64,000 nt of DNA, from positions 32,001 through 96,000 of the forward strand of contig CAVZRV010000035.1 in assembly GCA_963777605.1 (NCBI GenBank). The letters run 5' to 3'. The notes beneath the pieces were generated by a model. That model ran no database searches, had not been told where the DNA came from, and was given only the letters and a program-made list of their open reading frames with translations. Both the position numbers and the translations under genes were made by a program. Positions 10,930 to 57,890 of the stretch are shown one piece after another. Numbering within the stretch: position 1 is the first letter of the stretch; each line of letters begins with the position of its first letter. Source of the DNA: an uncultured Acidobacteriota bacterium. GTDB lineage: Bacteria > Acidobacteriota > UBA6911 > RPQK01 > JAPXNP01.

Positions 10930-11076
10930 ATGCTTCACTGGGCATTCATATTCTTGGTGCTGGCACTGATTGCGGCCATCTTCGGATTTCGTGGCGCTGC
11001 TTCAGCGTTTGCCGGAGTTGCAAAACTTCTGGTGGTCCTATTCCTAGTGCTGTTTCTGGTGGCGATCCTATTGTAG
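10930..11076 (+). CDS. DUF1328 (UPF0391/YtjA-like) small membrane protein
   Basis: Not in ORF track; [48 protein letters not shown]. Confidence 0.85.
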
Positions 11077-11094
11077 AGGATAAGGAGATTTGAA

Positions 11095-11262: not shown

Positions 11263-11317
11263 ACCGCCAGATCCAATCTTTAGTCAAACACTATTAATAA
11301 AGTAATAAGGGAATTGA

Positions 11318-32841: not shown

Positions 32842-33092
32842 GGCGATAGCGGAAGGCAAGAGAAAGAAGACTCGAGGCGCGGAAAAGGACCCGACTCAGG
32901 GAGGCTTTGCGAGATCCGTGCCTCGATCGCACCTTACGCGCTGAAACTCGAAACCTCGGAACCCCGAAAATCTCGCGGAATCCGAAACCCGCCACCGGGG
33001 AGTTCCCGGCCGGTCCGGAGAACCTTCCGGGTACTGGATGCGTTCTCCTGCTGTGGCCTCTGCGCCAGATTCAGAGTGCCCGAGGAGTTCAC

Positions 33093-34454: not shown

Positions 34455-34526
34455 GGGGACCACAGCAACAGCCGAGGGGTTCTGGAAATCGGGCGGTTGA
34501 GTGCATTTCGCACTTTGCATTTCGGC

Positions 34527-34918
34527 TCACTCCTCGGCAATCTCTCTCTGGGGCGGGGCGTAGACCATCCTCCGTCCGCGGACATAGGATTCGTCGGCCA
34601 GAATGCCTGCAACCGCATGGGCGTGGCCAGCCTCCATGGGGGCGTTCGGCTCCTGGCGCGTCCTCAGACAGTCGAGCCAGTTCTTCATGTGGTGAACACT
34701 TTCAACCGTTGGCAGTCTCGAGCCGGATGTGATCCGGTCGAGCTCCCCCATCCCTTCGCAGCTGAGCGGCCATTCCCCGTTCGAGGACCAGTCGTTGCAA
34801 TCGATGGAACCCCGAGTCCCGTAGACCATGTTGAAATGGAATCCCCCATTGCATTGGCTCGAGCAGTAGGAAAGCTTCCATCAGGGACCGGGCGTCCATT
34901 TTTCAACTTGAGCATCAA
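34527..34918 (-). pseudogene. Gfo/Idh/MocA oxidoreductase C-terminal fragment
   Basis: HMKNWLDCLRTRQEPNAPMEAGHAHAVAGILADES. Confidence 0.7.
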
Positions 34919-34973
34919 GGTGCGACTTCAGGAACTTGGAATGAACCACGGTGACTAATAAAGAGAAGGTGAG

Positions 34974-36485: not shown

Positions 36486-36534
36486 CTGCGGCGACTGTAC
36501 CCGCATTTGGGTTCGAAGTCGGACTGCACGAACC

Positions 36535-38491: not shown

Positions 38492-38556
38492 AAGGCCGGA
38501 TCTGGTCTACCTCGCTTCCCTCATAAACAGCCCTGCTTCACCGACTCCGATTCTCC

Positions 38557-38697
38557 TGTGTGAGACCCTGTGTGAGAGAATCTGGCCAAAACGTGGAAAA
38601 TCGTCCAAAATCGGCAAAACGGCGATTCCTCTAACTTCAGCAAGTTATTGAAAATGAGTAGGTTGTGAAGATCGTCAGGTTCTGCTTTGGGAGCAGG
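38557..38697 (+). other. att-like junction: arm repeats plus tRNA-Pro(UGG) anticodon-arm fragment
   Basis: tgtgtgaga x2; ~10-bp phased aaaa(t)cg repeats; ctgctttgggagcagg (38682-38697). Confidence 0.5.
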
Positions 38698-38865
38698 TCA
38701 TCGCTGAACGCGCCCTTGCTTTCGCGGCCAGGCTCTGGGGTTGTATTTTTCTCGTTGTGCAGTCCAAGGATTTTTGCGCAAGTGAGGTGGGCCAGTTTGG
38801 GGAAGAGTGGAAGAGCGTCGCCCCAGCCGCGCGGCGGAGCTTCCGCTCGCCGCTATCCAGCCGAA

Positions 38866-39755
38866 TCAACGGTCGCGCTCGATTGCTGCGGGCCCGGCGC
38901 GGGAGTGGGTTCGTTGTCGGAAGGCGGCTGCGGCTTTTTTGACGGTGTGTCTTGCGTAATACCGAGGATCGTCTTGTCGGAGCGGAATTCGGCCATGGCG
39001 GTGATGATCTTTTCCTCGGGGACTCCTCGGGCCAGGGCTCGCATGGCGTAGGCCCAGTCTTTTTCGGATTGGGAGCGGTGGCCGTCGGGGAGTTGGCGTT
39101 CTCCGGAGATTGGGGAGAGCTGTTCGGGGGTGAAGCGAGGGAACTGGTCGGGGCGGTAGATTTCGTCGGAGAGTTTCTCGGCGGTGACCGGATGGGGCGG
39201 GTCGTATTTGTGGTTGAGGAAGCCGGGGATTCGGAGGACCCGGGAGGAGTCGGTTGCGGCGGGGTCGGCGCCGGTTTCCCGGACGAGGGCTCGCTGGATT
39301 CCTTCGGCCTGGTCTTGCTCGAAGCCTTCCGCCTTCCAGATGATCTGGTACTTTCCGGCCGAGCTCTGGACGACATAGTTCGGGGTCGGAATGTCGGTTC
39401 GTTCGAGGAGACGATTCAGCGCTTCGGGGCCTCCGTGGTCGAGATCGAGATAGATGTGGCGGATGGTGCCGATGTCCTCCTTGGTCCGGCCGGTTGCCTG
39501 GGGTCGGAGGGCATTCATGGAGAGATAGACTTCGTAACGGCGGGAGTTCATGAAGCGAAGCCAGCGCTGGAAGTCTTCGGCGGCGATTCGCTCGGCCGAG
39601 GCGATCCGCTGAACCACGCCGCCATGTCTTCGGTTGACGAGGACGAGCGCGACTCGGTCTTTGGGTTCGAAGTTGTCGCGGATATAGGCGGCGGCCGTTT
39701 CCGAGTCGGTGCTCTGGTCTTTCAAGGTGTCGGTTCTTGATGCTGGGTCAATCAT
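38866..39755 (-). CDS. RepB-type (RSF1010 RepB'-like) DNA primase; frameshift near C-terminus
   Basis: VYLSMN, IYLDLD, VVQSSAGKYQIIW, ADPAATDSSRVLRIPGFLNHK, SQSEKDW; shift ~38973 restores DDPRYYARHTV. Confidence 0.8.
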
Positions 39756-40719
39756 GGTCTGCTCCATTTCGGCGGTACAGGACTTGGAGTTCATACCGGT
39801 CCCGTCCCGGATCGTAGTGTTGGATTTCGAGGACCTCCGCGACCTGGCGCCTGCCCTTTCGTCGCTCGATGTGCAGAAGGAGATGGATCGAGTCGGCGAT
39901 GCTGCTTCGCACGGCCGTGTAGGGCAGTTCGACACCGCTTTGAAGGACACAGCTCGTAAAGCGAGCAACGGCTTGCTCGGCCGAGTTGGCGTGGATCGTG
40001 GAGAGCGTTCCGGAATGGCCGGTATTGAGCGCCTGGAGGAGATCGAAGGCTTCCCCGCCCCGCACTTCGCCGAGGATGATCCGATCGGGCCGGTGGCGAA
40101 GGGCCGCCCGCAAGAGATCCCGGATCGTGACGGCCGGCAGTCCCGGATGATCGCGACGGGCCTCGAGGCGCACCAGGTTGGCCTTATCGATCTGGATCTC
40201 GGCCGTATCCTCGATCAGAATCAATCGACACGATGCGGGGACGAAGGCCGTCAGTGCGTTGAGCAGCGTCGTCTTGCCGCTGGCCGTACCGCCACTGATC
40301 AGGATGTTCTTCTCCGATTCGATGGCCTTCTGCAGCGTATTGACGAGATCGGTGGTCAGCGTGCCGATCCGGATCAGCTCTTCGGCGGTAAAGCGCTTGT
40401 TGTGGAACTTCCGGATGGTCAAGGTGGTTCCGCCGACAGAACACGGAGGAAAGACCGCGGCGACCCGCGAGCCGTCCGGAAGCCGCGAGTCGAGGATCGG
40501 CTTTTCCTCGGAGATCTCGTCGTCAAGTGCCCGGGCGATGTTTCGGGCGGCAATCTGCAGGCTCTTCTCCGAGATCTCGACCCCACGAACCGGCTCCACC
40601 AGGCCGTGTCGTTCGATGAAGACGCGGGAAGGGGCATTGATCATGATTTCGCTGACTTCCGGGTCCCGGATGAGGTTTTCGATCGGTCGAAGAAAGGGCA
40701 GGATCACGTCGAAGCTCAT
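39748..40719 (-). CDS. virB11: VirB11/CpaF ATPase
   Basis: SGGTASGKTT, IEDTAE, LRHRPDRIILGEVRG, NTGH, STIHA. Confidence 0.93.
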   Translation of the reverse strand: MSFDVILPFLRPIENLIRDPEVSEIMINAPSRVFIERHGLVEPVRGVEISEKSLQIAARNIARALDDEISEEKPILDSRLPDGSRVAAVFPPCSVGGTTLTIRKFHNKRFTAEELIRIGTLTTDLVNTLQKAIESEKNILISGGTASGKTTLLNALTAFVPASCRLILIEDTAEIQIDKANLVRLEARRDHPGLPAVTIRDLLRAALRHRPDRIILGEVRGGEAFDLLQALNTGHSGTLSTIHANSAEQAVARFTSCVLQSGVELPYTAVRSSIADSIHLLLHIERRKGRRQVAEVLEIQHYDPGRDRYELQVLYRRNGADHD

Positions 40720-42719
40720 CCGATTTCTCCTTGATCGAGCTGTTCGAAGTAGCTCAAGTTTCGATCCCGAAAGTAGGGCTTCAGGTAGCAGTAAGACGGC
40801 GGATGGGGATTGAACCCGTCGTAGGCCAGGACGATCGACTGGGCGTTTCGGAGTTCGGCGAAGATCTTGGGTTCGAAGACGGCGTCCCGGACGACGCTGT
40901 AACTCTTACTGGCGCTGACACTCGACTTGTGGGCCGTGGTGCGGCCGGTGAGCACACTGACCCGGGCGTCCTGGCCGTGCTCGGAGAGGTTGTAGTGAAG
41001 CCGCAGCTGTTCTTCTTTTCCGCACAGTTCGCTGGCCACCCGAGTGCTGAAGTCGTCGGAAAGGGCCAGGAAGATCTTGGTGCGAAAGGTCTGAAGCAGC
41101 GTCCGCCAGGATTCCCCGGGCAGGGTGGATCGAAGCGAACTGATGCTCTGCGTGGCGACGATCGGAATGCAGCGGGCCTGCCGGGAGAGGCTGAAAAACT
41201 TCTCGTCGCCGGTCGGATCGCTCTCACCGACAGTGGCAAAGGAATGGTACTCGTCGCAGAGGAACAACACTTCCCGCCAGTACCGGTCATCCTGGGATTC
41301 GATCCTGGGGATCCGGTCCAACATGGCCCGCTGGAAGTCCTGTTTCAAGAAAGTGCCGATCGCTCGGGCCAGGCCCGGATTGGCCGAGACGGGGAAGTTC
41401 AGAGCGCAGACCTTGCCCTGTTCGATCAGCTCGGAGAAAGGAGGCAGCGGCTTGCCGTATCGGCCGTCGCGGTTCATCTCCGGGTCGTAGCATTCCTTCG
41501 GAGGGCAGAACGTGCGTCTTGACGGCCGGGTTGTCGTCGAAAAGCGAAAGAAAGACGGAGATTCCTTCGACGATCGAGGTTCGGAGCTTGGGCTCGATCC
41601 GCATCCAGTCGTGAAAGAACCATCGCTCGACGGCTTCGAACTGAGCCTGCTTATCCTCCCTGGCTGCTTCGGACGCCCCGGCGGTCTCGGTCTGGATTTC
41701 ATACTGGATGCCGCGACGCTCGAGTTGATCGACGAGGTCTTCGGTCAAGACCGCCTTGAGCCGGTTCGTCTCCGGATCCATTTCGAAGGGGAGATCTTCC
41801 AGATGCTCGTGATCGAGAAACGCGTCCGGGTGGATCATCAGGGTGGTCGTCTCGCGAAAGCGGTGTCGTCCCTCTTCGATGCGCTTTTCGAGAAGATCGG
41901 GATTGATGGCGCATTCGTAGACGTCGAAGAGCGTGACGTAGTCGTAGACGACCTTGTGGAGCAGGATGATGAACTTGACGAGGTTCGTGTAGGCCTGCTG
42001 CCAGAAGGGCTCCTTGCCTTTGCCGAAGAGGTTGTTCAACAAGTGACGCGATCCCGTAAGCCAGGGCGTAGGCTTCGAGATCGTTGTGAAGCGGGTTGTA
42101 GCGATACTCGGAAGCGAGGCTCATTTCGACGTAGTCGTCGGCCCGGCCGTGTCGCGTCAGGATCTCGTTCACCTTGTGGCAGAAGTCCCCTTTGACTTCG
42201 AGTACCAGGCCGCTCGGCCGCCGATCGGGATCGCTTGCCCGGTAGGCCAGGATCTGCTCGGCGAAGGGAACCATGCAGCAGCTCGTCTTGCCCGTACCGG
42301 TCGCACCGAAAATGGCCAGGCCGGTAAAGAGTCCCCGACGGGGGATCGTCAGCCAACGGGGACGCTCGGCCGGTACGGGCTTTTTGGGATGGTGGACTTC
42401 GCCGAGGACGAGGTAGAGCTCGTCGCGTTCTGTGGGTTCGACATAGCGGGGCAGGCGTCCATGGAGGGTGCCGCTGTTTCTTCGGACGAGGAAGATGTAG
42501 GCCAGTGAAAGCGTGGCCGAGGTCACGATGTAGGGCGAAGTGAAGGAGAGCGCGACATAGATCAGTTTGAAGGCCAGAAAGAGTGCGCGGGCGTTCTGCG
42601 CCGATGAGTTCGAGGACCGGGTTGTCCTTGGGAAAGGGGAGCCAGTACTGGACCAGGACCGTCGTTGCGGCGGCAACGAGGAAGCTCACGAATGGTTTGT
42701 TTTCGTAGAGTCGTTTCAT
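40716..42719 (-). pseudogene. virD4: Type IV coupling protein (VirD4/TraD-like), split by about three frameshifts
   Basis: N-terminal TM, GATGTGKT, LEVKGDF, FLCDEYH, VATQS spread over ORFs 42036-42719, 41699-42676, 41287-42042, 40716-41702. Confidence 0.85.
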
Positions 42720-42785
42720 GGCCTGCAGAAGACACGTTCGAGGGTTGCCGGTTCATGAACTCGGTGTGAGTCGTGAACCTCAGGA

Positions 42786-42926
42786 GGCAAGCAGGGATGC
42801 TTGCCCTACGCTGTAGTGAGTTGTGGGGTGGGCGGGAGCGACCCTGGCCGAACCTTCGGGGGAGGAGTTAAGGTCTGGGCGCCTCAGGCGCCCAATGACC
42901 GGGGTCGCTCCCGCCCACCCCACGAC
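42786..42926. other. Candidate oriT/ssi: 28-bp inverted repeat plus flanking hairpins
   Basis: Arms 42820-42847 and 42899-42926 (22-bp perfect core); inner tgggcgcctcaggcgccca; ggcaagca-ggga-tgcttgcc hairpin; largest intergenic gap in the tra cluster. Confidence 0.55.
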
Positions 42927-43080
42927 CCCGCGAAGCGCCCAAAGGGACGCGACGCGGTTTCGCAATGTATTGATAATTCTTGGCTTTGGCCTTATCGAGC
43001 GGGTGAAGCTGCGGTGAAATCTACGGTCGAAACCCTGATGCAGACAAGTCGTCGATCGTCTTGGCGGCGCAAGAAGTGAT

Positions 43081-44106
43081 TCAGCGCCTGTTAAAGCTGT
43101 CGAGAAAGTCATAGTTGTGCTCCAGGCGAGCAGGTTTGAAAGTCCACAGAAATCGGAAACGGTAAGCTCCGCGATCCTGGATCCTTTCGGTGACCGCACG
43201 ATCGCCATCCTCTTTCCAGAGTCGAAGAGGGATTGGGTGTCCGGGCTGTTGAAGAGTCGGCGAGCTCTCTTCAGACGGATCAATCTGTCCCGGCTCAGGG
43301 ATTGAAACTGTTTGGTTTCGTAGAGGTGCTCCAGACGGAAGTACTCGAGAAGGCCGGCAGCATAGGTCTCGTTTGCTCGCCTCGGAGTCGAGCAACGCGA
43401 CAAGGGATTTCACTCTGCGTCTTGCCGCCTGAAAGTGTCGTTCCGTGTCCGCGATGTAGAAGAGCCGAAGCGTGCCCAACTGCTGAACAGTCGGCTGTAC
43501 TGGTTGAGAAACGTGTCGAAGCCCGCCAGCGATCGAGCCCCCGAGTCGACGTAGCAGAAGGAGACCACAGGCGAAGAGTCTGCGTCGTCAGACGAGACAA
43601 AGAGGGGAAACTTATCGACGAAGTAGCGGATGGTTTCGTCATCCGATTGCTTCGAGGAGTAGAGCTTTCCTCGGTAGGAGATCCGGACGAGAGTTTCCTC
43701 GTGATTGGTGAAGTAATCGACCTTCTCGCGTTCGGTGGCCAGGTAGGTTCGCTCCGGATCAGTCAGCACAAAATCGAGGGCCATCAGTTTGGTCTTGATG
43801 GCGGAGGGAGCATCGCTGGCGGCGGTTGCGGTTGTTCGGATCGCCCAGAGCCTCGAAGAACGGACGGGACGAGAGGTGAAAGACCCCGGTGTTGTTCGGA
43901 AAGACCGTGGCGCGGCGAGTGGCGATTGGCCGCCGATCCTCCACGAGTTGGATCACGGTCGTACCGTTACGGCAACCCACGAACGGTCTGTACTGGCGGC
44001 GCACAAAGTAACCGCCATGAAGGGCTGCGAGTACGAGAAAGGCGGCTTCCCGTTCGTTGTACCCGAATTCCTGGAGTGCTTCGATCCGCTGTTGCTGGGT
44101 CATCAC
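43081..44106 (-). pseudogene. Conserved tra-associated hypothetical protein (wHTH-like N-terminus), frameshifted
   Basis: FGYNEREAAFLVLAALHGGYFVRRQY / KLMALDFVL...YFVDKFP / LRLFYIAD in successive frames. Confidence 0.65.
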
Positions 44107-45019
44107 CTGAGGATCTCCGCAGTGAGTTCCCGTTCCTCTTTGACGGTGGAACCGGAAGACCGGGAGGTGCCGGCGAAGTAGATCTTGAATCCGGCCTGCC
44201 GCTTTTGAGCGAGTTGGCCGGGACGGTAGTGCTCGGTTGCCAGTTCCAGATCCCGATGGTCCAGTTCACCGTCCCGCGTCTCGTATTCGATCCGAAGATC
44301 CGGGAAGGCGACCCGGCCTCGAACGATCGGCAGATCGTGGCGGCTGGCGACCTCCTTCTGCTTTTCTCGGAGTGCCGCGTTCGTCTCCGCGTTGTCGCAG
44401 TTTCGAAAGCGGGCGAAAGACTTTCTCTTTAAGCTCGTAGTCCAAGACGACCCGGCGGATCTTTCCTCCCTCGAGTCGGATCTTTTCGGCCTCGAGCTGA
44501 TACATGCGGTAGATGGCGGCGTCATGGCGCGCTTCAGCCGGTTTGACGAAGCCGGAGTAAAGCTTCTGATTTCCGAGGCGATCCCGGGTCTCGGGGTGAC
44601 GGTTCAGGAAGCGTGCGCCTTGACGGGTCAGGACAACGACGTGGGTGCGATTTCCTGTCGGCAAGACAAGCCGAATCCGGCGGGCGAGCCGCTGACGGAT
44701 GAGGTTTCGAAGATCCTGTTCGGCCCGGGATCGGTTTCCCTCGTAGCGAGAAGTCGACCAGGTCCCGGACGTCGATCATTCGAAACCGCCCGATTTCCGT
44801 CATCGTCTCGAGTTCGGATTCCCGCAACTCGAAGCTTCGATTCCGCGACCAGCGGCGCTCGCGAGCGTTTGTCCGCGGATCGTCTTGAACCGGTCGTTCA
44901 GTTGAGGGCGTGCGCGGAAGGTCTTTACTGTCGACTGAGCCGCCGGCACGCGACAGGGATCGGTGGTTGGGCTCGTCGCGAAGATCCGGGTGAGGCTCGC
45001 GCTCCAGTCGTCCCCTCAT
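44103..45019 (-). pseudogene. Replic_Relax/MOBC-like relaxase candidate, frameshifted
   Basis: Reconstructed wHTH (EIGRFRMI...VVLTRQG), HDAAIYRMY, FPDLRIEYE...DLELAT PD-(D/E)xK-like core. Confidence 0.6.
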
Positions 45020-45312
45020 GGTTCCTCCCGCAGACGCTCGCTGAGTTCCTCGGAGATGCTCTGCCCAGATCTCAACTGTTTCTCGAGGTGAGCCAGCTTC
45101 TCTCCGGTGTTCTTCAGAAAGAGCCTTCGGCTGAGGACAAAGACTCCGGCGAGCAGGTTGAAAAAGAACCAGGCGGAGACACCCAGAATCGTCCATCCGT
45201 AGTCGGAGACTAAGAGGTGCCGGTAGGGGATCAGGAAGCGGAGTTCCTGCATCAGGTAGAAGAGTGCCGCCAGAAAGAGAATGCTCGTCACAAAGAAAGC
45301 GTTTTTGATCAT
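45016..45312 (-). CDS. Small two-TM hypothetical protein in tra operon
   Basis: Two hydrophobic segments, LKNTGEKLAHLEKQL; coupled to the next gene. Confidence 0.7.
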   Translation of the reverse strand: MIKNAFFVTSILFLAALFYLMQELRFLIPYRHLLVSDYGWTILGVSAWFFFNLLAGVFVLSRRLFLKNTGEKLAHLEKQLRSGQSISEELSERLREEP

Positions 45313-45316
45313 CGCG

Positions 45317-46006
45317 TTACTGAAAGGCCTGGTCTTCCCGGAAGTAGGTGATGGTCAGACCCAGCGGATTGATCGGTACCAGGGTGTTGGGGACCTGGTC
45401 TTTGACGACGAAGACGAAGTGGGCGACCCAGAGGTCGCGCCGGATCTCGAGATGATCCTGGGCCGTGTAGTAGATCTTTTCGAAGTCGACCGATGCCTTG
45501 TAGGGCGGCGAGCGAAGGTCCTCGATCGAGACGTTACGGACGTTGATCTCGATCTCCTCACCGTTTCCCGCCAGAAACTCTTCGATCGTCTGGTTCTTCC
45601 GGTTGGCTTCGATCGTCGCATCGGCCAGGCGCCCGTCGAGAAAGTAGAGCGAGGAGGAGTAGTTCTCGCGAACCGTGGCCCTAACCCGCCCGTAGTGGCG
45701 GGTGACGAACTGGATCAGGAAGTACTTGATCTCGGGGGCCTGCGGTTTGTATCGGAGGGCATCGTATTTGACGGCCTCGGCCCGCCCCACGTCGTCGATG
45801 CGGATCACGAGCGGCTTGAGGTCGGCGAAGGCCCGATAGGTCTTGAAATTCAGGAGGATCAACCCGACCAGCACCACCGAGAGGCTCAGCAAGGCGATCT
45901 TCAAGTAGGTGTTCGTCACCAGAGCCGAGCCGAACTGCTCCATGTAGAGCCGCTTGGCCTGGCTGAACTCTTTCGGGGGCGGCGGTAACAGGGGTGTCTT
46001 ATCCAT
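45317..46006 (-). CDS. virB8: VirB8/TrbF
   Basis: Single TM, PLVIRIDDVGRA, C-terminal INPLGLTITYF. Confidence 0.88.
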   Translation of the reverse strand: MDKTPLLPPPPKEFSQAKRLYMEQFGSALVTNTYLKIALLSLSVVLVGLILLNFKTYRAFADLKPLVIRIDDVGRAEAVKYDALRYKPQAPEIKYFLIQFVTRHYGRVRATVRENYSSSLYFLDGRLADATIEANRKNQTIEEFLAGNGEEIEINVRNVSIEDLRSPPYKASVDFEKIYYTAQDHLEIRRDLWVAHFVFVVKDQVPNTLVPINPLGLTITYFREDQAFQ

Positions 46007-46015
46007 AATCTTCGC

Positions 46016-46843
46016 TTAGCTGAACTGGCGCGGCAGAGCGGTTTCGCCCGCCCGGCCGGTAAAGATGCCGTTGACGAGACTCGGGACTTTCAGGAGGCCA
46101 TAGATAAACGCCACAAGCAGAAAGAGAAACGGGACGAACAGGATGGCCAGTCGCGCTCCGTCAAAGGGTGGCGGATGGGCGTCGAGAAAGCGGATCAAGA
46201 GGTTTCCGAAGATGAAGACGAAGGCGTGCGCGATCACCTGGTAGAAGGCGTACTGAATGAAGGCCCGAAACCATCCCCAAAAGAGCCATTCGAAATGGGG
46301 AACGATGAAAAACGGAATGAAGATCGGACCCACCAGGACGATGACGCCCAGCGCCGCCCAGCCGAACGAGATGACTCCCAATACGGCCACCTGGGCGAGA
46401 ATGACGGCCAGCATCACCACGACGTATCGGATGATCGAGAGGACGTCCAGAAAGTAGGGCCACTCCATCGTGTAGACGACTTCGTAAAGGCGCAGCTGCA
46501 CTTCGCTTGCCGTCGCCAGCTCGATTCGATTGGACAGGAAGATCCCCTGCTGAATGATGACGTCCTTAAAGCTCAGGCCGAGTGCCGGCAGGGGCCGATC
46601 GTAATAGGTGATCATGGCCTGACAGAACGCGATCGTCAGAATCAGGCTGGCGAGTCTCGACATTCGGAAACCGCCCTCGTGATCCGAAGCGGAGAGAGCG
46701 GCGCGGATTCCAAACCACGAGATGAGGATGATCGCGAAACCGGTAAAGAGATTCCGACCCATGATCAGAAACAGGTTCGTGTGGCGGGTCAGCAAATCGA
46801 TGATGGCTTGCTGAATCGCGGTGAAGTAGTTCAGGTCGGGCAT
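46016..46843 (-). CDS. virB6: VirB6/TrbL
   Basis: Polytopic membrane protein, VGPIFIPFFIVP..WLFWGW. Confidence 0.85.
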   Translation of the reverse strand: MPDLNYFTAIQQAIIDLLTRHTNLFLIMGRNLFTGFAIILISWFGIRAALSASDHEGGFRMSRLASLILTIAFCQAMITYYDRPLPALGLSFKDVIIQQGIFLSNRIELATASEVQLRLYEVVYTMEWPYFLDVLSIIRYVVVMLAVILAQVAVLGVISFGWAALGVIVLVGPIFIPFFIVPHFEWLFWGWFRAFIQYAFYQVIAHAFVFIFGNLLIRFLDAHPPPFDGARLAILFVPFLFLLVAFIYGLLKVPSLVNGIFTGRAGETALPRQFS

Positions 46844-46860
46844 TTCGCCAATCCCTCTCC

Positions 46861-47696
46861 TCAGGGCAATCGAAAGTTCTGAAGCACTTCGGTCGTCCCC
46901 CGGATCCCGGCCATTCCGATATCCAGGGCTTCCCGCTCGAAGGCGATATGGGTGTTGATGGCTGCGGCATCCGCATCTCGCCGCCGTTTCGAATCGGTGA
47001 TCTCGTGCTCGAGGAGCGAGACGAGTAATTGGTTGGTGTCCTGCGTCGTTCGAAGTGCGATCGTTCCGGCGGCGTTGATCTGGTTCAGAACGGCAATCTG
47101 GGAGTTGTCGTCCTCATTGTCCGAAAGGGAGTCGTTTTCGAGAGACGAATGGCCCGTTCGACGGCGTCTGCATGGTCGCGGAGGCTGCCGACAAGTTCGA
47201 TCCCGTGGAGATTGGCGGCATCGGCCAACTCCACGGTCCCGTAACGGGTCATCACCCGTCGAAGCTGAGCTTCGGGAATCTCGGCAATCGCCCGGCCGTA
47301 ATCGGAGAGTTCCTCGATGGCCTGCCGGTAGCCTTCCAGAACGGATCGTCCCCGGTTGATGGCTTTACTCCAGGGACCGGTCGTTCCATACCGGTCGGCG
47401 GCCTCGGATCTCCGCCAGGGGGTCAAGGCAGCCCGGTAGCGTTCCTTATCGGCCATCTGTTGCGCCATAAACAGGAGATGGTCGTACTCCTGCTGCAATG
47501 CCCGGACGGTATAGACCACCTGCCAGAAGGTCTGAACCTGCCAGCTCCGCATCGACTGCATTTCGCCGTAACGAAGGACGGCGTTCGCATAGTTGGTCGG
47601 ATCGTAGACGAGGGTCGGAAAGAAGAGCTGGGCATTGGCGGACGATGCCAGCACCGTAACGATCAGGATGAAAACCGCGATCTTCTGGAGCTTCAT
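46861..47696 (-). pseudogene. virB5: VirB5/TrbJ-like protein, one frameshift ~47148
   Basis: Signal peptide, VYDPTNYAN; continues SLENDSLSD...NQLLVSLLE...NFRLP in another frame. Confidence 0.7.
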
Positions 47697-47833
47697 CAGT
47701 GCCCTCCCCGCCCGGCGAACATAAAGATGATCGCCAGCAGATAGAACACCGAGACAAAGACCAGGAATCCTCCGATGAGGATCCGGTACAAACAGGGTGA
47801 AAGCAGACGAAGTAAAAGCAATCGGAAAATCAT
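47696..47833 (-). CDS. Small hydrophobic protein
   Basis: GGAGG RBS; 45-aa hydrophobic ORF whose stop overlaps the virB5 start. Confidence 0.45.
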   Translation of the reverse strand: MIFRLLLLRLLSPCLYRILIGGFLVFVSVFYLLAIIFMFAGRGGH

Positions 47834-47846
47834 GGTTCCTCCTCCC

Positions 47847-49188
47847 TCAAAAGTCCGCCGGCTCGGGATGGTCCGCATAGGCCGGAACCAGGAGGTCCCC
47901 GGCCAGAAGGATCTTGATTCGGTGACCTTCGCGGACCGTAAAGGTCGGCAGCACGTTCAGATATCGATTGAGGATCTGAAGCGACGAGGCGGATACGCTT
48001 CGTGAGACGCCTTGGCGGTAGGCATCACCGGCCGAGTAGTCATTTCCGTAACGGGTCCCGGCCTGGGCCAGACCGGCAATGGCGCCGATGGCCAACGACA
48101 CTCCGAAGAGTCTCAGGTAGTGGCGATCCACCTTGTCCTTGAGACCGGTTTCTCCGATTTGATTGAGGCCCTGAAACTGGTCGAGATCGAGCGAGAATCC
48201 GTCCGGCATGATGATCCGATGAAAGACGACCGCGAGGCGTTCCTGGCCCAGTTGATCGACTTGTGCGGACCTCACCCAGGATCCGGCTTCCTTTGGGGAT
48301 CAGCAGTCGCTGACGGTCGCGGGAGTAGACGTCCTCGGTGAGCATGCAGTTGACCGGCCCGGCAAAGGATCCGGTCAGACGGTTGGTCAGGACCGACTCC
48401 AGGACGGTGCCTTCGAAGAGGCGATACTGTTTCCTGTCGGCTTCGCTCGTATCCTTCAGGACAGGAGGCCGGCGCCGCTTCGTTGCGGTCGGCTCAGCAT
48501 TCGGCTCGGCGATCGGCTCCTGCGCGGCCGCCACTTCTTCCGCAGGAGATGCCGGATTCGGTACTTGCGGTGAAGGCGGGACCGGGCCAGACGCCGGCAC
48601 ATAGAAGGGGAGAGGCGACTGGCGATAATCTGGCCCGGCGGTGGGAGGGATCAAAGCGGATAGGGAAGGCGGGTTCTGGGTCGCAAACAGCGTGTCCTTT
48701 TGTTCGGGTTTCGGTCGATAGCTTTGCGCGACATTCGAGGCGAAAAGCGCCTGGTAGGCTCGCTCCTCCTTGTCGCGCTCGACGGAGCTTCGTTCACGGC
48801 TGACGCGTTCCGGACGATACTGAGGCGGCGGGTAGGAGTTCGCCGGATCCGCGAGTGGTTCCGGCTGAGCGCCCAGGGACTGCTGCGCCTGCTCGAGGCG
48901 TGCTCGTTCGGCGGCAAGTCTTTGGGCCCGTTCTTCGATCCTTCGCCGATACTCCTGGATCCGGCTTTCGTTGGGATCGATGACCGACTTCACCTCGGCG
49001 GGCCCTTCGGCTGGAGGCGCCGTCCGCTGGGGAGTGTCGATGGCCAGTACGACGATCATCAGGAGCGCCACACCGAGGATCACCCAGGTCTGGATATTCT
49101 TCGGCAGGACCCCGGCGGGTTTTGTCACTCGATCGAGAACTGCCGGGGGCCGGGGGTTCTCCTGGTTGGTTTGCGGCTTTTCCGTCAT
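47847..49188 (-). pseudogene. virB10: VirB10/TrbI, one frameshift ~48268
   Basis: TM, Pro-rich linker, LFEGTVLESVL, IPKGSRILG / GLKDKVDRHY, PTFTVREG. Confidence 0.88.
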
Positions 49189-49192
49189 GGGC

Positions 49193-50062
49193 TTAGTCCT
49201 CGTGACTGAATTTCAGCTTCTTCTTGCCGATGGCGAGATACCCTCGATCAAGCACCTTCGAAACAACATAGGTACCGTCGTGGTAATCGAACTGGATGAG
49301 GTTGGGCTTTCCGTCCTTGATCTCGTAAAGCGCCGGCACCTCTTGCGGATTTGCCCGAATGAAGGTGAACTTGCCGTCGTTATAGATCGAGGTGACGTTA
49401 AAGGGCTTCTTTGCGGCCTTGAAGCGATACCCGAATTGGAGCTTCAGCGGATAGGTGGACCGAAACTGTGTGGTCTCCTCTTCGATCCGGGCTTTGGCTT
49501 TCTCTCGGGTCTTTCGCGTCTCTTCTTTGGCGATCTCGACTTGGCGGCGAAAGTCATCGATCTGATAGGCGGGAACGAAGCGTGGATCGGACTTCATGGC
49601 CGAGAGCATTGCGGTGTCTTTGAGTTCGACGAAGAGCTTCAGATCGGGTTGGGCTCCGGCCTGTTTGGAGACTTCCGTGAGGACGAAGGAGTAGACGTTG
49701 CCGCTTGCCGTAATCAGATTGAGATTCGTCTCGGCGCCGAGCTTCGAGGGTTTGACGTAAGCGAAGTTCTCGACGCCTTCGACGACCCAGTATTCCTTGT
49801 CGCCGCAGACGAAATCGAGAATCCGTTCGTCTTCAGGCAAAACGATCAGGGTCGTATAGCGAAGCTTCGCCTGGACGTCGATGACGTCGCGACGGCCATA
49901 GTGAACCAGGCGTGAGGACTGCTGCCCGGGTTCCGGCAGCATCACCTCTGTATTCGGTGAGTCCAGTGCGACCAGACTTCTCCCCGAGGCAAAAAGCGAT
50001 CCGCCGAGGAGGATCAGGCAGGACATGGCGGACGCAATCAGACAAATGGAGGGTCGTTTCAT
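49193..50062 (-). CDS. virB9: VirB9/TrbG
   Basis: Signal peptide, YTTLIVLP, VKP, TNLNLIT, YNDGKFTFI, PALYE. Confidence 0.88.
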   Translation of the reverse strand: MKRPSICLIASAMSCLILLGGSLFASGRSLVALDSPNTEVMLPEPGQQSSRLVHYGRRDVIDVQAKLRYTTLIVLPEDERILDFVCGDKEYWVVEGVENFAYVKPSKLGAETNLNLITASGNVYSFVLTEVSKQAGAQPDLKLFVELKDTAMLSAMKSDPRFVPAYQIDDFRRQVEIAKEETRKTREKAKARIEEETTQFRSTYPLKLQFGYRFKAAKKPFNVTSIYNDGKFTFIRANPQEVPALYEIKDGKPNLIQFDYHDGTYVVSKVLDRGYLAIGKKKLKFSHED

Positions 50063-52535
50063 GGGTTGCTCCTTTGGGAAGGGCGGCGAGTGCCGCGAGC
50101 CAGTTCTTCGAGGCCCGGCCCGAAGCCCAACTGTTCGAAGATCTTGCTTCGGCGATGGTCGTCGTAGGGATCGCTCGTATAGAGCCAGTAGCCCTTCTCT
50201 TCGATATTGAGATTGACGACTTTCGAGAGATCCGGGCGTTTGATCAGGATCTGGCGCTTGGGGATCAGCTGCGCAATCCGATCCGCCTCGGTTTCGTTCA
50301 GGTGGAAGATGCGCCGGTAGGTCTCGCGATCCATGCCGGGATTGGCCAGAAACAGGGTGGTCGCGCAGCTTTCGAGCACGATCTGTAACATCTCGTTCTG
50401 ATCCAGATCGGCACTCGACTGAGTCGACAGGATCATGGCCGCATTGCGCTTGCGCCAGGTCTTCAACGCCTCGGTGATGTAAAGGCGAATCGTGGGATCG
50501 CGCATGAATCGCCACGCTTCATCCATCACGAAGACCTTGAACGTGGTGGCCAGGCTCGGATCCTGAATCGAAGCCGAAGCCCGGTGGAGGATATAGAAGA
50601 CGAGCGGCTCCAGGACCTGCGGATAGCGGTCCATACCCTCGAAATCGAAGCACTGAAAGCGCGAGAAGGACAGGTTGTCCTGGACGTTATCGAACAGCGC
50701 CGCATAGGGCCCGCCCCGGACCCAGCGATAGAGATGCTGGCGCAGGTCGCGTCGGAGGATATTGGAGAGGGTGAAGAGCCGTCGCTGTTCCGGTTCGACC
50801 TCGTAGAGGTTTTCGATCTGCTCGAAGAGGTCCCGCTCGTCGTTTTCGTCTAAGCGGTAGCCGCCCGACTGGATCAGCACCTTGATGAAGGAGAACAGGA
50901 ACTGAAAGTTCTCCTTCGTCGGCGGCAGGCTGAACGGGTTGATGACAAACGACTGCCGTTCGAGTCCGACCGGCAGGTAGCTCCCCGAAAAAAGATGCGC
51001 CAGGTGGCGATAGCTTCCGCCCAGATCGAAGATGAACGTGTGAGGGTCATATTTCTGGAGGTGGGTGATCAGGAAGTTCAAGAGGAACGATTTGCCGGTT
51101 CCCGTCGCCCCGAGGACGAGCGTGTGAGCGACGTCCCGATAGTGGAGATTGAGGAAATAGGGCTGGTTGTGTTCGGTCTCGAGGACGGCGAGGTGCTCGG
51201 CACCGAGATGTGCGTTCCACATCTCTCCGGTCTCGAGCGTAAACAGGAACGACAGGTCGGCGTAGTTCGTGTTGAGCAGGTAGAGATGGCGAAGGTTATG
51301 GAGGGTGTTTCCGGGGATCGTCGCCAGAAACGCGTTCAGCAGGTTGTAGCGCTCCTCGATCGAGGACCGCATCGAAGGCCGAAAAGACCTTGAAGAACTC
51401 GGCGGCATCCTTCTCCAACTGGACCCGGTCCGCGTCCGTGAAGTACGACCGTCAAGGAGAAGCGGCCGAAATAACGGCCTTCGATCTCCATCTCGCTCAG
51501 GCAGTGTCCGAGATCGACGACCAGGCCGACTGCGGCATCGTCGGTCAGCATCTCGCCGGGCGCCGGCGGCGCTCCGTTCTGATTCTGCTGGAAGAGGTAG
51601 CTTGCGAGGCTGTGCTTGGCATTGTGAAAGTGCCGGCGCTTACGCCGGATCAGCCGCCGCATCCGGGAACTGTCTTCCCGTTTGAATTCGCTCGTGAGAA
51701 TGAAGTTGGTGGGGATTTCCAGAAGCCCCCGCAGAAGATGCGTGATGGTGTGTGACGGCGGATCCTTGAGCGTCAGGACCTTCACGTACCGATCGCCCAG
51801 ACGCAGGTGGTCGCGGTGACATTCGAGCGGTTCGTCCGAGACGAAGTAGTCGAGAAAGAGATCGTGTTTCAGTGAGACCGCATCCGCCTTGTCGGGCGTC
51901 AGGTTGACCAGATGCCGGAAGAACCGGAAACACTCGTCCTTGGGAAGAAGCGTGAAGTCGGCGACTTCGCGCAACTGAATCAGAAAGCTGTTCACGCGGT
52001 TCGTGAGCACTTCGCGATGCCGATCCAGTTCCGCCTCGAGAAGACCGACCTGCTGCTCTCCCGAAAGCATCTCCATAAATCCAAGCTTCGGATTGGAGAG
52101 GAGGCGCGAGAGCCGCTCCAGCCGGCTTCGACGATGTCGCCACCCTTCGTAGAGGACCGTGAAGTAGATTTCGAAGGAGTAGAGTTCGTTCGCCTTCGAC
52201 TCCAGGTAGTCGACTCGTCCCTTGATGGCTTCATCGACGACCGGGTTTTCGAAGGTCTGCCTCGGAATCGGGGCGTGGCTTCGCTTGAGAAGGTGCTGGT
52301 AGATGCGGAACTTCTCGTCGAGGATCTTCAGGGAAGCCTCGAAACGGCGGGCGATCCGGTCGAGCTGGTCCGGATCGAGGCACTCGTAGTCGACTCCCCG
52401 AACCCGGATCACCACACCGAGATCCCCGCTTTTGGTCAGGAAGGTGTGCGGATCGACGAACCCGTAGAGGTTGATCAGCTCACTCAGGGCGCCGGTCTGT
52501 CGGTAGTCCTTAAGAATTCGGCTGAGCTTGACCAC
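50059..52535 (-). pseudogene. virB4: VirB4/TrbE ATPase, frameshifts ~51441 and ~51362
   Basis: FLTKSGDLG..GVDYE, GATGTGKS, FVMDEAWRF, KTWRKRN, STQS; GTG start with AGGAG. Confidence 0.92.
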
Positions 52536-52826
52536 GAGGTCTCCTTTCGAGTTCGAAGCGGGGCAGCTTCGCCGGATCGTATTGAGCCCGAAACCGTGAA
52601 GATTCAGCAGGATGCGAAGCATCTGCGGATCGCTTGCCGTCATCCAGCGCGCCACCGCGTAGAGGACCGCGAACATGAGCAATCCGGTCACGAGGCTTCC
52701 GAAGAAATTGAACGCAGCCGCTCCCACGACCAGGGCGAGAAAGAACAGCCTTCGTTCGGCGCCGAGCACCGTCAAAGGCTTATTCACCGACTTGTAGACT
52801 GGATGGGTTGTAGACTGCTTCGACAA
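52510..52826 (-). pseudogene. virB3: VirB3, one frameshift ~52602
   Basis: VYKSVNKPLTVLGAERRLF...DPQML; native C-terminus RFRAQYDPAK lies in another frame. Confidence 0.85.
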
Positions 52827-52856
52827 CGGGCTTCCTCCCTTCTGCGTATCCCGGTT

Positions 52857-53183
52857 CTAGGGGAACAGCCAGGCCATGAAGTTGACGGCGCCGATCGCCA
52901 TTCCGATGCCGAAGAGGATCCCGGCAAAGACCCGTTTGCTCTGCCCCTCTCCGTAGGCGAACATCAGCCCGCCGACGACGATGGCGACCAGACTCAGGCC
53001 TCGAGCGATGGGTCCGGTAAAGGCAATCTGCAGGACGTTGACGGCGTTCTCCCAAGGGGAAGCCTGGGCCAGTACGGGAGTCGTGAAGATCAAGGACAGG
53101 GCCCAGAAGACCCAGGCCCGGCTGAGTCGCCTCGCCTTCGGCTCCCTTTGTAGAGACTGCGATTTGAACCTATCGTGTTGCAT
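52857..53183 (-). CDS. virB2: VirB2/TrbC pilin
   Basis: SPWENAVNVLQIAFTGPIARGLSLVAIVVGGLMFAYGE. Confidence 0.92.
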   Translation of the reverse strand: MQHDRFKSQSLQREPKARRLSRAWVFWALSLIFTTPVLAQASPWENAVNVLQIAFTGPIARGLSLVAIVVGGLMFAYGEGQSKRVFAGILFGIGMAIGAVNFMAWLFP

Positions 53184-54774
53184 CTTGGTTTCCTCCATTG
53201 AAGAGTTGGGGTTGTGGACTGGTATTGCTGAGTGATTCGCCGAGATCCCGGCAGTCTTCGAGTTCCAGAAACTCCTGCTCCGAGACCAGTTCAGGACACG
53301 TTCGGGCGATCTCGTCTTCGACGGCAGATCGGGCCAGGCGGGTCAACTCGTCCTCGCCTCGATCGCCCAGAAGTCGCCTGTAGGAGACTTTCCGGCTTTC
53401 GATGCGGGCCTCGAAATCGGCTTCGAGCCCCTCGTCCCGGATGTACTGCTGGATGCGGCAAGACTTAAAGGACTGAAAACGCGCGTGGCGTTCGGCGTCT
53501 CGTCTGCGATCCTCTTCGTCGCGGTCGTCCCAAAACAACGGCGCATGGCAGCCGAATGACGGCGGCACGGGCCGGTTTTCCTTGAGGAATGCGACGAGAA
53601 ATCCGACCGGGTTCTCAAGAGCCCCCTGGGCTGCGACCGAGTCGATGTACTCCAGTTGATCGAAGACGGGCTGGTTGGGATCTAAAGACCTTGCAAGGCT
53701 TCGCGCATCCCGTTTGGAGAGTCCACGCTTCGAGAGCTCGGCGACGAGGCCTTCAAAGGGCTGCCGTGATTCGTGCTCCGGTTCCTCTTCGGGCTTCCCG
53801 CTTGTCGGCGGGGCGGCTGATGGCCCGACCTCACCCTGGCTGCGATCCTCGTCCCTGCGAAACTTCGGGCCATGATGCAGGACGAGCTTGAATCCCTGTC
53901 CATCGCTGGTCTTGGCGATCTTCCAGTCGGCGAGATAGCCGTGCTCCGTCAGTTCGTCAAGCGAAGGCCCCAGCTTTTCCCGAATCTTCGAGGCGTAGCG
54001 ATACTCGGTCACGCTCAGAAGCCGAGCCAGCTCGTCATAGCGCTTCTCGAACGAGCCCTGGTTCTTCGTCGCGTAGAGCACGACCTGCAGCGGGAAGATC
54101 AGGGCTTTGGCGATCGGGTTCTTGAGCCGGTAGTAGGTCGGCCAGTCGATCGGCAGGGAGTGATTGCAGTTGAGGTTCCGCAGTTGCCAGTCGGAGAGGT
54201 AGACATAGTGTTTCTCGGCAATCGTTCCGTCTTCGAGTCGTTCTCCCCGCGAGGTGAAACGTTCGAAAACGTGAAATGCAGCGCTTCGCCATTCCTTGCG
54301 ATCGGCCAGAAAGACCGCCTGATCGGAGAGGATCAGGGTCCCCGTAATCCGCTCGAGCCATTCCCGGATGTCGCGGTAGTTCTTGCCGGCATCGGTCTGC
54401 CCCAGGAGTTTGAGGATCTCGGAACTCGAGAAGGTGATCGGGTTCGTGACTCGTCCCTTTCTGAACTTGATCCCCTGGATGATCCACATCAGGGCCAGGT
54501 ACTTGTCCTGATCGGCGGTTGTCGGCAGGCCATGAACGGCCGTCGGAATGATCGTGACCCGTTTCTCTTCGCGCTGACCGTTGACCAGCTTCGTGATCTT
54601 GACGGTCTTCTTCCGGGTGTTCCGGATCGTTCGAGACGAGGGCGTAAAGAACCCCAGTGAGGCCAGGTTCGCCTCCACGTTGACGAAATCGGGGATCTGG
54701 AGTTCCGCAGCATCGGCTCGCTCCGACTCCAGGATCTGCTGCAATTCGACGGCGGACAGGGCTTCGGGTTGCAT
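53170..54774 (-). CDS. repA: Plasmid replication initiator RepA (wHTH, RPA-like)
   Basis: GLPTTADQDKYLAL, FSSSEILKLL..GKNY, YYRLKNPIAKAL, LDELTEHGYL; adjacent iterons. Confidence 0.8.
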   Translation of the reverse strand: MQPEALSAVELQQILESERADAAELQIPDFVNVEANLASLGFFTPSSRTIRNTRKKTVKITKLVNGQREEKRVTIIPTAVHGLPTTADQDKYLALMWIIQGIKFRKGRVTNPITFSSSEILKLLGQTDAGKNYRDIREWLERITGTLILSDQAVFLADRKEWRSAAFHVFERFTSRGERLEDGTIAEKHYVYLSDWQLRNLNCNHSLPIDWPTYYRLKNPIAKALIFPLQVVLYATKNQGSFEKRYDELARLLSVTEYRYASKIREKLGPSLDELTEHGYLADWKIAKTSDGQGFKLVLHHGPKFRRDEDRSQGEVGPSAAPPTSGKPEEEPEHESRQPFEGLVAELSKRGLSKRDARSLARSLDPNQPVFDQLEYIDSVAAQGALENPVGFLVAFLKENRPVPPSFGCHAPLFWDDRDEEDRRRDAERHARFQSFKSCRIQQYIRDEGLEADFEARIESRKVSYRRLLGDRGEDELTRLARSAVEDEIARTCPELVSEQEFLELEDCRDLGESLSNTSPQPQLFNGGNQDATR

Positions 54775-54802
54775 TCAGACCTCTCCCCATCCGGTCGAAG
54801 TG

Positions 54803-54860
54803 AACAACAACAACTGTTTGTTGAAACAGTTTTGAAATTGTTTTGAAGATGTTTTGTATT
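54803..54860. other. AT-rich unwinding element of oriV
   Basis: aacaacaacaac and gttttg(aa) x3 between the iterons and repA. Confidence 0.65.
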
Positions 54861-54900
54861 CCGAAGAGGCAGTCAGGGTGCGGGTTTCCGGCCGGTTCTC

Positions 54901-55045
54901 TTCCCTTGAAGTACGGAGATTCTTCCCTTGAGGTACGGTATTCCTTCCCTCGAGGTACGGGAATCCTTCCCTCGAAGTACGGTTCTTCCCCCGGAGTACG
55001 GTCCGATTTCCCTCGAGGTACGGAGGGATTTCCCTTGAGGTACGG
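54901..55045. repeat. Seven iterons, consensus TTCCCTYGARGTACGG
   Basis: Starts 54901, 54923, 54945, 54967, 54986, 55008, 55030 (22-bp period, one 19-bp step). Confidence 0.92.
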
Positions 55046-55313
55046 CAAGCGTGGGATGAATGGGGTGAGGAGAGGAATCCGGAATGCTGAATGCCGAGAT
55101 CGCGAATGGCGATTGTCGGACGGAGAGGAGCCGCCCGGCGGCGTTCGACGGTCCGTAAAATGTGTCTGCGCAACCATGTGTCCTGTTTCTTTCCTGCGGT
55201 CCGTAACTGGAGCGCCGAATTCAACTTAGGACACAATCAGGAAAGACCCGGCTAGACTGGTTATTAGTGGTTAGTGACCCAAACGGACCACTTCGTAAAA
55301 GGTCGTCCCCGTT

Positions 55314-55358
55314 CTTCTAATCCGTAGGTCGCGCGTTCGAATCGCGCCGGGCGCGCCA
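55314..55358 (+). other. 3' half of tRNA-Arg(UCU): att core
   Basis: cttctaatccgtaggtcgcgcgttcgaatcgcgccgggcgcgcca; no 5' half; flanked by arm-like ggacacaatc (55229) and gattgtgcccg x2 (55427, 55439). Confidence 0.85.
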
Positions 55359-55472
55359 CCCCCAACCCGCGTCGGACGGGGCTTTCCGGCTATTTGGCTA
55401 TCTCACCAAACACCCTCGATAAGGGGGATTGTGCCCGTGATTGTGCCCGCGCCGATCCAACTCCAACTCACT

Positions 55473-57610: not shown

Positions 57611-57890
57611 CTGAACCTCCCTCAAGGCCTTGTTAAGGGCCTCGTTGTTGGAGATTGAATTGTGAGCAGTAGTAGAAGCTCAGGGCACCACCGCCTGACT
57701 GATCGGATTTTCCGCGGAACGCAGCTCCGAAATCAGGAAGACCTTCCGTTTCGAGTACGGGCTGGGAATGATTCTCGACATTGGACCGGTTTGGATTGAG
57801 GTTGACCAACACGACCCGCCTCTCCGTGGCCTGACAGCGGTCCTTTCCAGAGTCTAACTCACCCCGGGAGACCCCACAAGCGCCCCCAAG

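Follow-up and report, generated by a model that had tools for sequence, protein, structure and literature searches.

A probable degraded copy of a widespread Acidobacteriota conjugative element family, with a candidate MOBC-like two-gene relaxosome

How DNA is prepared for transfer by a conjugation operon in which no HUH relaxase is recognisable, and whether such an operon belongs to a plasmid or to an integrated element, are the questions raised by a gene cluster of an uncultured Acidobacteriota bacterium (GenBank assembly GCA_963777605.1). The cluster occupies the minus strand from 38853 to ~55236 of the stretch of DNA analysed here (the window, 64,000 nucleotides), which corresponds to positions 32001-96000 of contig CAVZRV010000035.1 (C35, 333 kb) in a genome of 6.73 Mb in 53 contigs. 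Acidobacteriota are among the most abundant soil bacteria and their DNA exchange is almost wholly uncharted. An initial annotation, made from the sequence alone, had described the cluster as a minimal self-contained conjugative replicon coupling replication to transfer, headed by a RepA gene and equipped with a PD-(D/E)xK relaxase candidate. Comparison with related loci leads to another answer: the window probably holds a copy, degraded as assembled, of an integrative and conjugative element (ICE) from a family widespread among Acidobacteriota, with a candidate MOBC-like relaxosome encoded by two genes (A and B) and with RepA as a local juxtaposition. A bolder proposition, which we regard as evenly poised, is that A, B and a repeat of ~150 nt constitute a previously untyped relaxosome-oriT module that drives the transfer of seemingly 'relaxase-less' ICEs and of islands without a type IV secretion system (T4SS) across Acidobacteriota; in that case A would be a PD-(D/E)xK nickase, MOBC-like but far diverged and marked by an invariant tyrosine, and B its obligate partner, representing a new family.

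A word-indexed search with protein A (the paralogous copy on contig C31 as query) returned at least 290 homologues, and a full HMMER scan of 1.84 billion representatives yielded 2176 family representatives at E<=1e-3, nearly all unnamed. Relatives of A are encoded in 554 stretches of species-representative genomes, and the best 80 of these related stretches are the loci counted below (numbered with L). Most belong to metagenome-assembled genomes (MAGs) of Acidobacteriota, often with several copies per chromosome, and a few bear the labels of other phyla. In a literature search no paper was found that describes this element family or an Acidobacteriota relaxase, and the suggestion of an under-described acidobacterial conjugation system made by the initial annotation is borne out. 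A-B loci in MAGs labelled otherwise than Acidobacteriota are L010, L021, L026, L033, L040, L045 and L059, the labels being Actinomycetota, Solirubrobacteraceae, Competibacteraceae, Dormiibacterota, Limnocylindrales, Eisenbacteria and Patescibacteria; these reflect either transfer between phyla or binning error.

The full gene set is present in 31 of the 80 loci, always in the order VirB2, VirB3/4, VirB9, VirB10, VirB5-like, VirB6, VirB8, a small protein named x98, A, B, the type IV coupling protein (T4CP) and VirB11. When the open reading frames (ORFs) of these 31 loci were clustered all-against-all, a tyrosine integrase was found in 23 and a tRNA gene downstream also in 23, mostly directly after the integrase; a small ORF follows B in 30, and no homologue of this ORF, located after the repeat in the relatives, was detected in either the window or the C31 copy. 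Upstream of VirB2 the relatives encode a sigma-70-region-4-like protein and, in some loci, a small Cys-rich protein, each cluster being confined to a minority of the 31. Locus L057 illustrates the arrangement: one co-oriented operon of ~17.6 kb, with A at 9920-10855 and B at 10852-11991, ends in a RepB-type primase, a tyrosine integrase and then a tRNA gene. Given that in the relatives the cluster closes with a tyrosine integrase, in most cases beside a tRNA gene, as in tRNA-integrating ICEs, the family is a compact ICE of ~17.6 kb (as in L057) plus any cargo beyond the loci. Against this, a search of the loci of the relatives for a direct repeat of the tRNA (14 nt or longer) within 10 kb upstream found none. 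In contrast to the relatives, the window copy has no integrase and, in place of a tRNA gene, only a tRNA-like fragment of 46 nt.

The transfer channel is of a familiar type. VirB2, 3, 4, 6, 8, 9, 10 and 11 and a VirD4-type T4CP are recognised by Pfam in one cluster, as in systems of mating pair formation type T (MPF-T), and their order recurs in the 31 relatives; Guglielmini (2012) had already noted a single MPF-T conjugative system in Acidobacteria, basal in the MPF-T tree. The family differs from known MPF-T systems and ICEs in that no HUH relaxase was found and the A-B-repeat module lies between VirB8 and T4CP. The window copy departs further, with RepA in place of the regulators and no integrase. 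RepA was detected in none of the 80 related loci and in none of five genomes that hold intact elements. Of 400 other Acidobacteriota genomes, 13 encode homologues of it; 19 loci were fetched from these, and none of the 17 that were re-matched by local tblastn encodes VirB2 or VirB4 within 1.5 kb of RepA. RepA is therefore not a trait of the family: the claim that it heads the tra operon describes a real physical overlap with virB2 and, beyond that, a local juxtaposition.

The pairing of A with B is far more constant than their association with a secretion system, as B adjoins and follows A in all 80 loci, with or without a T4SS. Seventeen loci of more than 11 kb contain A-B with no match to T4SS or T4CP; an integrase follows in 12 of these and an excisionase-like gene of the HTH_17 family (helix-turn-helix) occurs after B in 10, and a tRNA gene was present in 10 of the 13 T4SS-less loci scanned. 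Such a relaxase-excisionase-integrase layout is that of integrative and mobilisable elements (IMEs) according to Coluzzi (2017). As A-B-repeat is accompanied by an Xis-like HTH protein and an integrase, and by no T4SS, in these other islands, it behaves as a portable mobilisation module. The primase encoded in 24 of the 31 full loci is swapped for ArdC in five and is missing from T4SS-less islands, so it is dispensable for this module. The ArdC-like gene, with an ArdcN domain and a metalloprotease motif, takes the place of the primase in L012 (15351-16322) and in four other loci. A tRNA-SeC gene adjoins two of the T4SS-less A-B islands (L045, 7160-7258; L046, 4400-4498).

Protein A (44103-45019, minus strand) is broken in the window near 44745 and 44380, as located with the family hidden Markov model (HMM). 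Members of the family have ~300 aa and consist of a basic, variable N-terminus, a probable winged-helix region and a conserved domain. Among 86 diverse members H166, P240, D241, E259 and Y265 are invariant, and E163, D167, D257 and K273 nearly so (P0003 numbering). Canonical Replic_Relax proteins (PF13814), collected from Acidobacteriota genomes and the protein database, have an invariant H, PD and E-x-D, and their spacing from PD to the acidic residues equals that of A. Consistent with this, the nearest named Atlas family of A is PF13814 (score 0.89), one homologue in the list of A relatives carries a precomputed PF13814 label, and weak PF13814 matches were obtained for 2 of 51 and 4 of 86 family members (best E 1.6e-5). 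Comparison of A with Replic_Relax by hhalign gave a probability of 30% over 204 columns and of 50% over 196 columns, the latter with PD and the following LE...K aligned, and the winged helix alone gave 70% (E 3.9e-5, 81 columns).

PF13814 is equated with MOBC by Coluzzi (2017). A resembles the MOBC relaxases pAD1 TraX and CloDF13 MobC in its size. Further likely points in common with MOBC/Replic_Relax are a probable N-terminal winged helix and a collinear series of PD, an acid-x-acid strand ~16-18 residues on, then T-E and K. The gene lies near a VirD4-type T4CP, as described for MobC IMEs in the same paper (Coluzzi, 2017). A differs by its invariant tyrosine directly after the acidic strand, by a long, basic and probably disordered N-terminus, by its constant pairing with B, and by its setting beside an MPF-T-like T4SS in Acidobacteriota hosts.

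Several results weigh against this kinship or against the relaxosome reading as a whole. Neither local copy of A reached the PF13814 threshold; the hhalign probabilities are modest, and the conserved histidine of A (in an HD motif) is left unaligned. No significant match to the A-family HMM appeared in CloDF13 (ORFs of 100 aa or longer), a weak test as MobC could not be identified in that fragmentarily annotated record. Moreover, B has no credible relative (against Replic_Relax, 12% by hhalign and 2.7% with a larger profile), and the repeat discussed below lies immediately ahead of the ribosome-binding site of the following ORF and could be a transcriptional element. Other searches were likewise without result: A had no match among 72,556 PLSDB plasmids, the local A and B had none in Pfam, NCBIfam or PHROGs, and searches of PDB sequences with single sequences and with the A profile gave no credible match, the best one (the C-terminal domain of DnaG, E 0.056) being rejected as chance. 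In a PF13814 scan of the whole genome at E<=10 the sole match was a different gene on contig C6. This canonical Replic_Relax gene (C6:49350-49815, L086/L087) lies away from the element and is split into two overlapping frames. Overall, the evidence of kinship is consistent though weak, and A is filed as a protein that would work like a MOBC relaxase, not as a demonstrated member of the family. As regards the PD-(D/E)xK relaxase proposed initially, what stands is the conservation of H, PD and E and a weak, collinear similarity to Replic_Relax; the Pfam threshold is where the proposal falls short.

Protein B (43081-44106, minus strand) is read in three frames in the window, with at least two breaks, near 43800 and 43400. 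It has ~340-345 aa, an invariant DNRNRR motif that may be described as arginine-rich, and no known family. The idea that B is a paralogue was dropped: hhalign gave nothing when B was compared with A, and the probability against Replic_Relax fell on enlarging the profile. Of the two winged-helix proteins announced in the initial annotation, the helix is supported in A by hhalign and in B is a guess only. A lone, intact paralogue of B with no A beside it occurs on C6 (L004, C6:160000-171647; gene at 7863-8912, repeat at ~9082-9149), with kinase/RDD genes on one side and a Fic-domain gene on the other, and has the look of a relic fragment of the module.

The third component is a structured inverted repeat (42780-42960, minus strand) between B and T4CP, with arms of 28 nt (42820-42847 and 42899-42926) that are 93% complementary. 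The large inverted repeat noticed at the outset is therefore present, and it is conserved among relatives: the core GG(G/A)A(G/A)CGACC occurs in the best B-T4CP inverted repeat of 52 of 53 relatives and of both local copies. Of 54 loci with a T4CP, 43 have a strict motif pair after B, as do 17 of the 19 loci in which no T4CP matched; the 6.73-Mb genome as a whole contains only three such pairs, and a B gene adjoins every one of them. The core repeat forms the inner stem of a multi-stem element of ~150 nt. Among 31 sequences of the commonest type, 18 of 35 predicted pairs show compensatory changes, 95.9% of the cells are paired vs 84.1% in shuffles, and the covariation score is 0.271 vs 0.070 in shuffles, none of 500 of which reaches it, with slid-partner controls at or below 0.048. 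These 31 sequences were chosen by the motif pattern, and the invariance of the core among them is therefore circular; most of the covariation resides in the outer stem, which played no part in the choice. In Rfam the repeat matched no family, and only sub-threshold miRNA hairpins appeared, which were rejected.

Based on this evidence, a working scheme can be put forward. After excision of the element, A would bind the conserved repeat downstream of A-B and nick nearby, with B assisting the binding or nicking step; the adjacent T4CP would recruit the complex and pass the DNA to the MPF-T-like channel for export of the strand. In elements that encode it, the primase may prime synthesis of the complement, and the integrase would insert the element at a tRNA gene. 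For comparison, a 2025 T4SS review states that the repeats bound by TraX lie at a distance from nic and that a covalent intermediate was not seen. The covarying candidate oriT makes the mechanism directly testable in vitro. If A-B is a relaxase module, a large set of elements to which standard MOB typing would probably assign no MOB class can be understood as ICEs and mobilisable islands, and the poorly understood non-HUH relaxases of MOBC type gain a large and diverse branch with an obligate partner. What the window itself holds is more modest: a broken copy without integrase, fused to a plasmid-type RepA.

The gene list and order of the initial annotation were recovered by Pfam and repeat searches, each feature at its place on the minus strand. 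Downstream of repA, the VirB2/TrbC pilin (52857-53198; PF04956, E 4e-16) is intact and full length compared with relatives, and is followed by VirB3 joined to the VirB4 ATPase (50059-52826; VirB3 E 3.1e-9 in Pfam), with a break near 51360-51405 that separates an N-terminal part with VirB3 (51336-52826) from a C-terminal part (50059-51408). VirB9 (CagX; 49193-50062; PF03524, E 6.7e-33) is in a single frame and intact, and VirB10 (TrbI; 47847-49188) is broken near 48247-48275, both pieces matching Pfam (E 2e-10 and 1.5e-27). Next comes a VirB5/TrbJ-like protein, x203 (46864-47696), with a weak NCBIfam TrbJ match (E 8.8e-4), a break near 47148 and a homologue of 296 aa in L057; the two genes seen initially between VirB10 and VirB6, one of them VirB5, are thus a single VirB5/TrbJ-like gene split by a frame break. 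VirB6 (TrbL; 46016-46843; PF04610, E 1.2e-8, single frame) and VirB8 (45317-46006; PF04335, E 5.3e-15) are intact. The small predicted membrane protein x98 (45016-45312), just upstream of A, belongs to no Pfam, NCBIfam or PHROGs family and is present in 55 of the 80 loci.

Beyond the repeat, the VirD4-type T4CP (40716-42719; TraG-D_C, E 2.1e-9) has breaks near 42600, 42040 and 41515, and VirB11 (39748-40719; PF00437, T2SSE, E 4.4e-52) is intact. The RepB-type primase (38853-39794; PF16793, E 6.8e-23) is in a single frame and apparently intact; its homologue in L057 matches the PHROG 'DNA primase'. It resembles RSF1010 RepB' in this N-terminal RepB_primase domain, the C-terminal helical domain being weak (E 0.0073 in the window copy, below the cut-off; 5.6e-5, also weak, in the C31 copy), and differs from RSF1010 MobA-RepB in standing alone, unfused to a relaxase. 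VirB1 and VirB7 were not recognised among the genes of the unit, VirB1 without a search aimed at it. In agreement with the lack of integrase and partition genes noted before, profile searches of the whole of C35 found neither a tyrosine integrase (Phage_integrase) nor ParB_N.

Reading the window against the proteins of the intact locus L057, and for A also against the family HMM, revealed at least 10 frame breaks in six genes: one each in VirB4, VirB10 and the VirB5-like gene, two in A, at least two in B and three in T4CP; the family HMM matches A in three different frames, and T4CP runs through four frames relative to L057. Contigs of related elements, from four metagenome runs of three studies and derived from relatives, not from the same strain, lack one base at seven of the breaks (41516/7, 42041, 42585, 44378, 44749, 48263 and 51360), so the window holds +1 insertions there. 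No RNA run was listed among the sequencing runs, and the best share of words in any run was 0.17, so that none of them contains the same strain.

Whether these breaks record decay is the point at which the reading of a degraded copy is most exposed. All seven covered differences are single extra bases, with no deletion, a pattern odd for natural decay that could instead reflect consensus error, and the breaks do not lie in homopolymers. The paralogous copy on C31, with 91.5% DNA identity and an intact T4CP of 666 aa, also has a +2/+1 indel pair in A, within 67 nt, which garbles the wing of the winged helix and keeps the frame. VirB11 of the window differs from that of the C31 copy by 58 synonymous and 6 nonsynonymous codons, pointing to strong purifying selection, and the two copies therefore diverged while functional; the breaks would be either recent decay or a local consensus error. 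Contigs of up to 1.15 Mb suggest that long reads were used. On these grounds assembly errors in a repeated, strain-variable region, with a real element intact apart from the missing integrase, are a serious possibility, somewhat short of even. On the other side, the genome at large is not error-ridden, as 125 of its ORFs reach 1000 aa or more, the breaks being local; the genes flanking the unit (beta-lactamase-fold hydrolases, amidohydrolase and subtilase) are intact, with full-length Pfam matches, and the Replic_Relax gene on C6, likewise a mobile gene, is split too, in keeping with real decay of mobile DNA. The degraded-copy reading is retained for the unit as assembled: the integrase end is lost, six genes are frame-broken, and a plasmid-type RepA with iterons stands where regulators are usual. 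With no integrase and six broken genes, the copy is probably immobile, unless the breaks are assembly errors.

The C31 copy (L002, C31:126000-145999) comprises the A-B-repeat-T4CP-VirB11-primase half (4801-11094) and is cut off upstream of A by a transposase of the IS6/IS240 family, the insertion sequence lying at 11054-11776. A third partial copy (C31:18558-19843) consists of the VirB11 C-terminus and the primase, beside a tyrosine integrase cluster (C31:15948-18327).

As for RepA, it may be the origin of a large plasmid-like replicon, C35, or cargo of this one element. The gene (53170-54774, minus strand) is an intact ORF of 534 aa (PF10134, E 2.6e-13), single copy in the genome, whose stop overlaps the virB2 start by 29 nt. 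Upstream of it, Tandem Repeats Finder and a repeat search located ~6-7 copies of a 22-nt iteron (54899-55045), and the combination of a PF10134 initiator with adjacent 22-nt repeats is that of an iteron plasmid replicon. The nearest plasmid homologues, with 32-36% identity, are RepA proteins of Acidobacteria megaplasmids (Granulicella tundricola pACIX901 and Acidisarcina plasmids). RepA of pACIX901 (475 kb) is 35.6% identical over 73% of its length, and the window repA has iterons directly upstream; on the megaplasmid, repA comes after parA and a small gene and has no T4SS as a neighbour, whereas in the window no partition genes were found and repA abuts virB2. A serine hydrolase gene comes next after RepA in pACIX901, similar to the surroundings in the window.

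It is therefore plausible, if on the doubtful side, that RepA and the iterons are the origin of C35 itself, a megaplasmid or chromid of at least 333 kb, and that the ICE remnant merely lies beside it, a reading compatible with the ICE explanation for the rest of the unit. The megaplasmid homologues and the shared hydrolase neighbour favour it, as does the fact that C35, which carries the sole RepA of the genome, has no integrase by the profile search and no tRNA gene by ARAGORN (in the window or elsewhere on the contig). Against it, an end-overlap test on C35 was negative, ParB_N is absent from the contig, and no homologue of pACIX901 ParA was found in the whole genome. In addition, a fragment of 46 nt resembling a tRNA 3' end, read in the sequence at 55313-55359 (plus strand), is a possible attachment-site remnant on the RepA side; if it is one, RepA would fall inside the element boundary.

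Further copies of this fragment lie at C35:96343-96388, at C31:138780 and at three sites on contig C30; two of them (C30) adjoin integrase genes, and the one on C31 is beside the C31 element copy. They hint at an integrative past of the unit and may represent integrated islands arrayed in tandem, with no intact tRNA gene among them. The two copies on C35 are in direct orientation, 9 kb apart, and bracket the hydrolase / low-G+C / subtilase region to the right of the unit.

A different objection concerns the relaxosome itself. A and B could be regulators or a replication-initiation pair of the excised circle, the repeat an origin, terminator or RNA leader, and the nickase a protein that was not recognised or acts in trans. 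Six relaxase families (PF03432, PF03389, PF08751, PF07514, PF01076 and PF02486), which cover MOBP, MOBQ, MOBF, MOBH, MOBV and MOBT, were searched in the genome under study (G000) and in genomes with related elements. G000 has no match to any of the six; PF03432 is absent from G000-G005, PF03389, PF01076 and PF02486 have no match in G000-G004, and PF07514 has none over the cut-off. TrwC (PF08751) matches in two genomes only, G002 and G004, at a distance of over 1.4 Mb from the elements, and G001, a complete chromosome of 5.27 Mb with two intact elements, and G003, likewise with intact elements, encode none of the six anywhere. The absence of an HUH relaxase reported initially thus holds for the elements within these Pfam families, and intact relatives are not always accompanied by a separate one.

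In favour of the regulatory or replicative alternative are the Pfam name of PF13814, 'replication-relaxation', and the work of Steczkiewicz (2012), in which the family is placed in the PD-(D/E)XK superfamily and termed a predicted transcriptional regulator. A few A-family members weakly match PadR or MarR, B has no nameable catalytic signature, and the position of the repeat before a ribosome-binding site points the same way. Against it, the ORF clusters conserved in most intact elements are all assigned and none is left over as a nickase; a nickase in trans would have to be sought in G001 and G003 outside the six families, the H, PD, E and Y of A are invariant across diverse members, and the module travels with Xis-Int in T4SS-less islands. 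G-U type pairs are also rare in the repeat (~15 of 1080 cells), which fits a DNA structure better than an RNA. The alternative is hence unlikely, and the A-B pair appears, from sequence comparison, to be the only plausible DNA-processing module of these elements.

It is very improbable that the 16-kb unit is a self-contained conjugative plasmid, as the initial annotation had it, or recently was one and is now co-integrated into a larger replicon: RepA is intact and provided with iterons, its stop overlaps virB2, the unit has no integrase, and ICEs and plasmids reportedly interconvert, but RepA stands beside a T4SS only here, the relatives are tRNA-associated ICEs with integrase, A has no homologue among the PLSDB plasmids, no partition genes were found, and the copy, broken as assembled, lies within a contig of 333 kb.

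The surroundings of the unit show some further features. Its flanks share no direct or inverted repeats of 10 nt or more. Three genes for beta-lactamase-fold serine hydrolases (PF00144) and an amidohydrolase gene lie around it, at 32907-38181 and 55661-57625. The G+C content falls to 0.47 between 58000 and 60000, vs ~0.58 elsewhere, and inside this stretch is an ORF of 362 aa (59080-60168, minus strand) without a Pfam family. On the other side of the unit, a spacer of 670 nt separates the primase stop from the amidohydrolase gene and contains short tandem repeats with units of 12 nt and 10 nt (38555-38623); the relatives have their integrase at this position.

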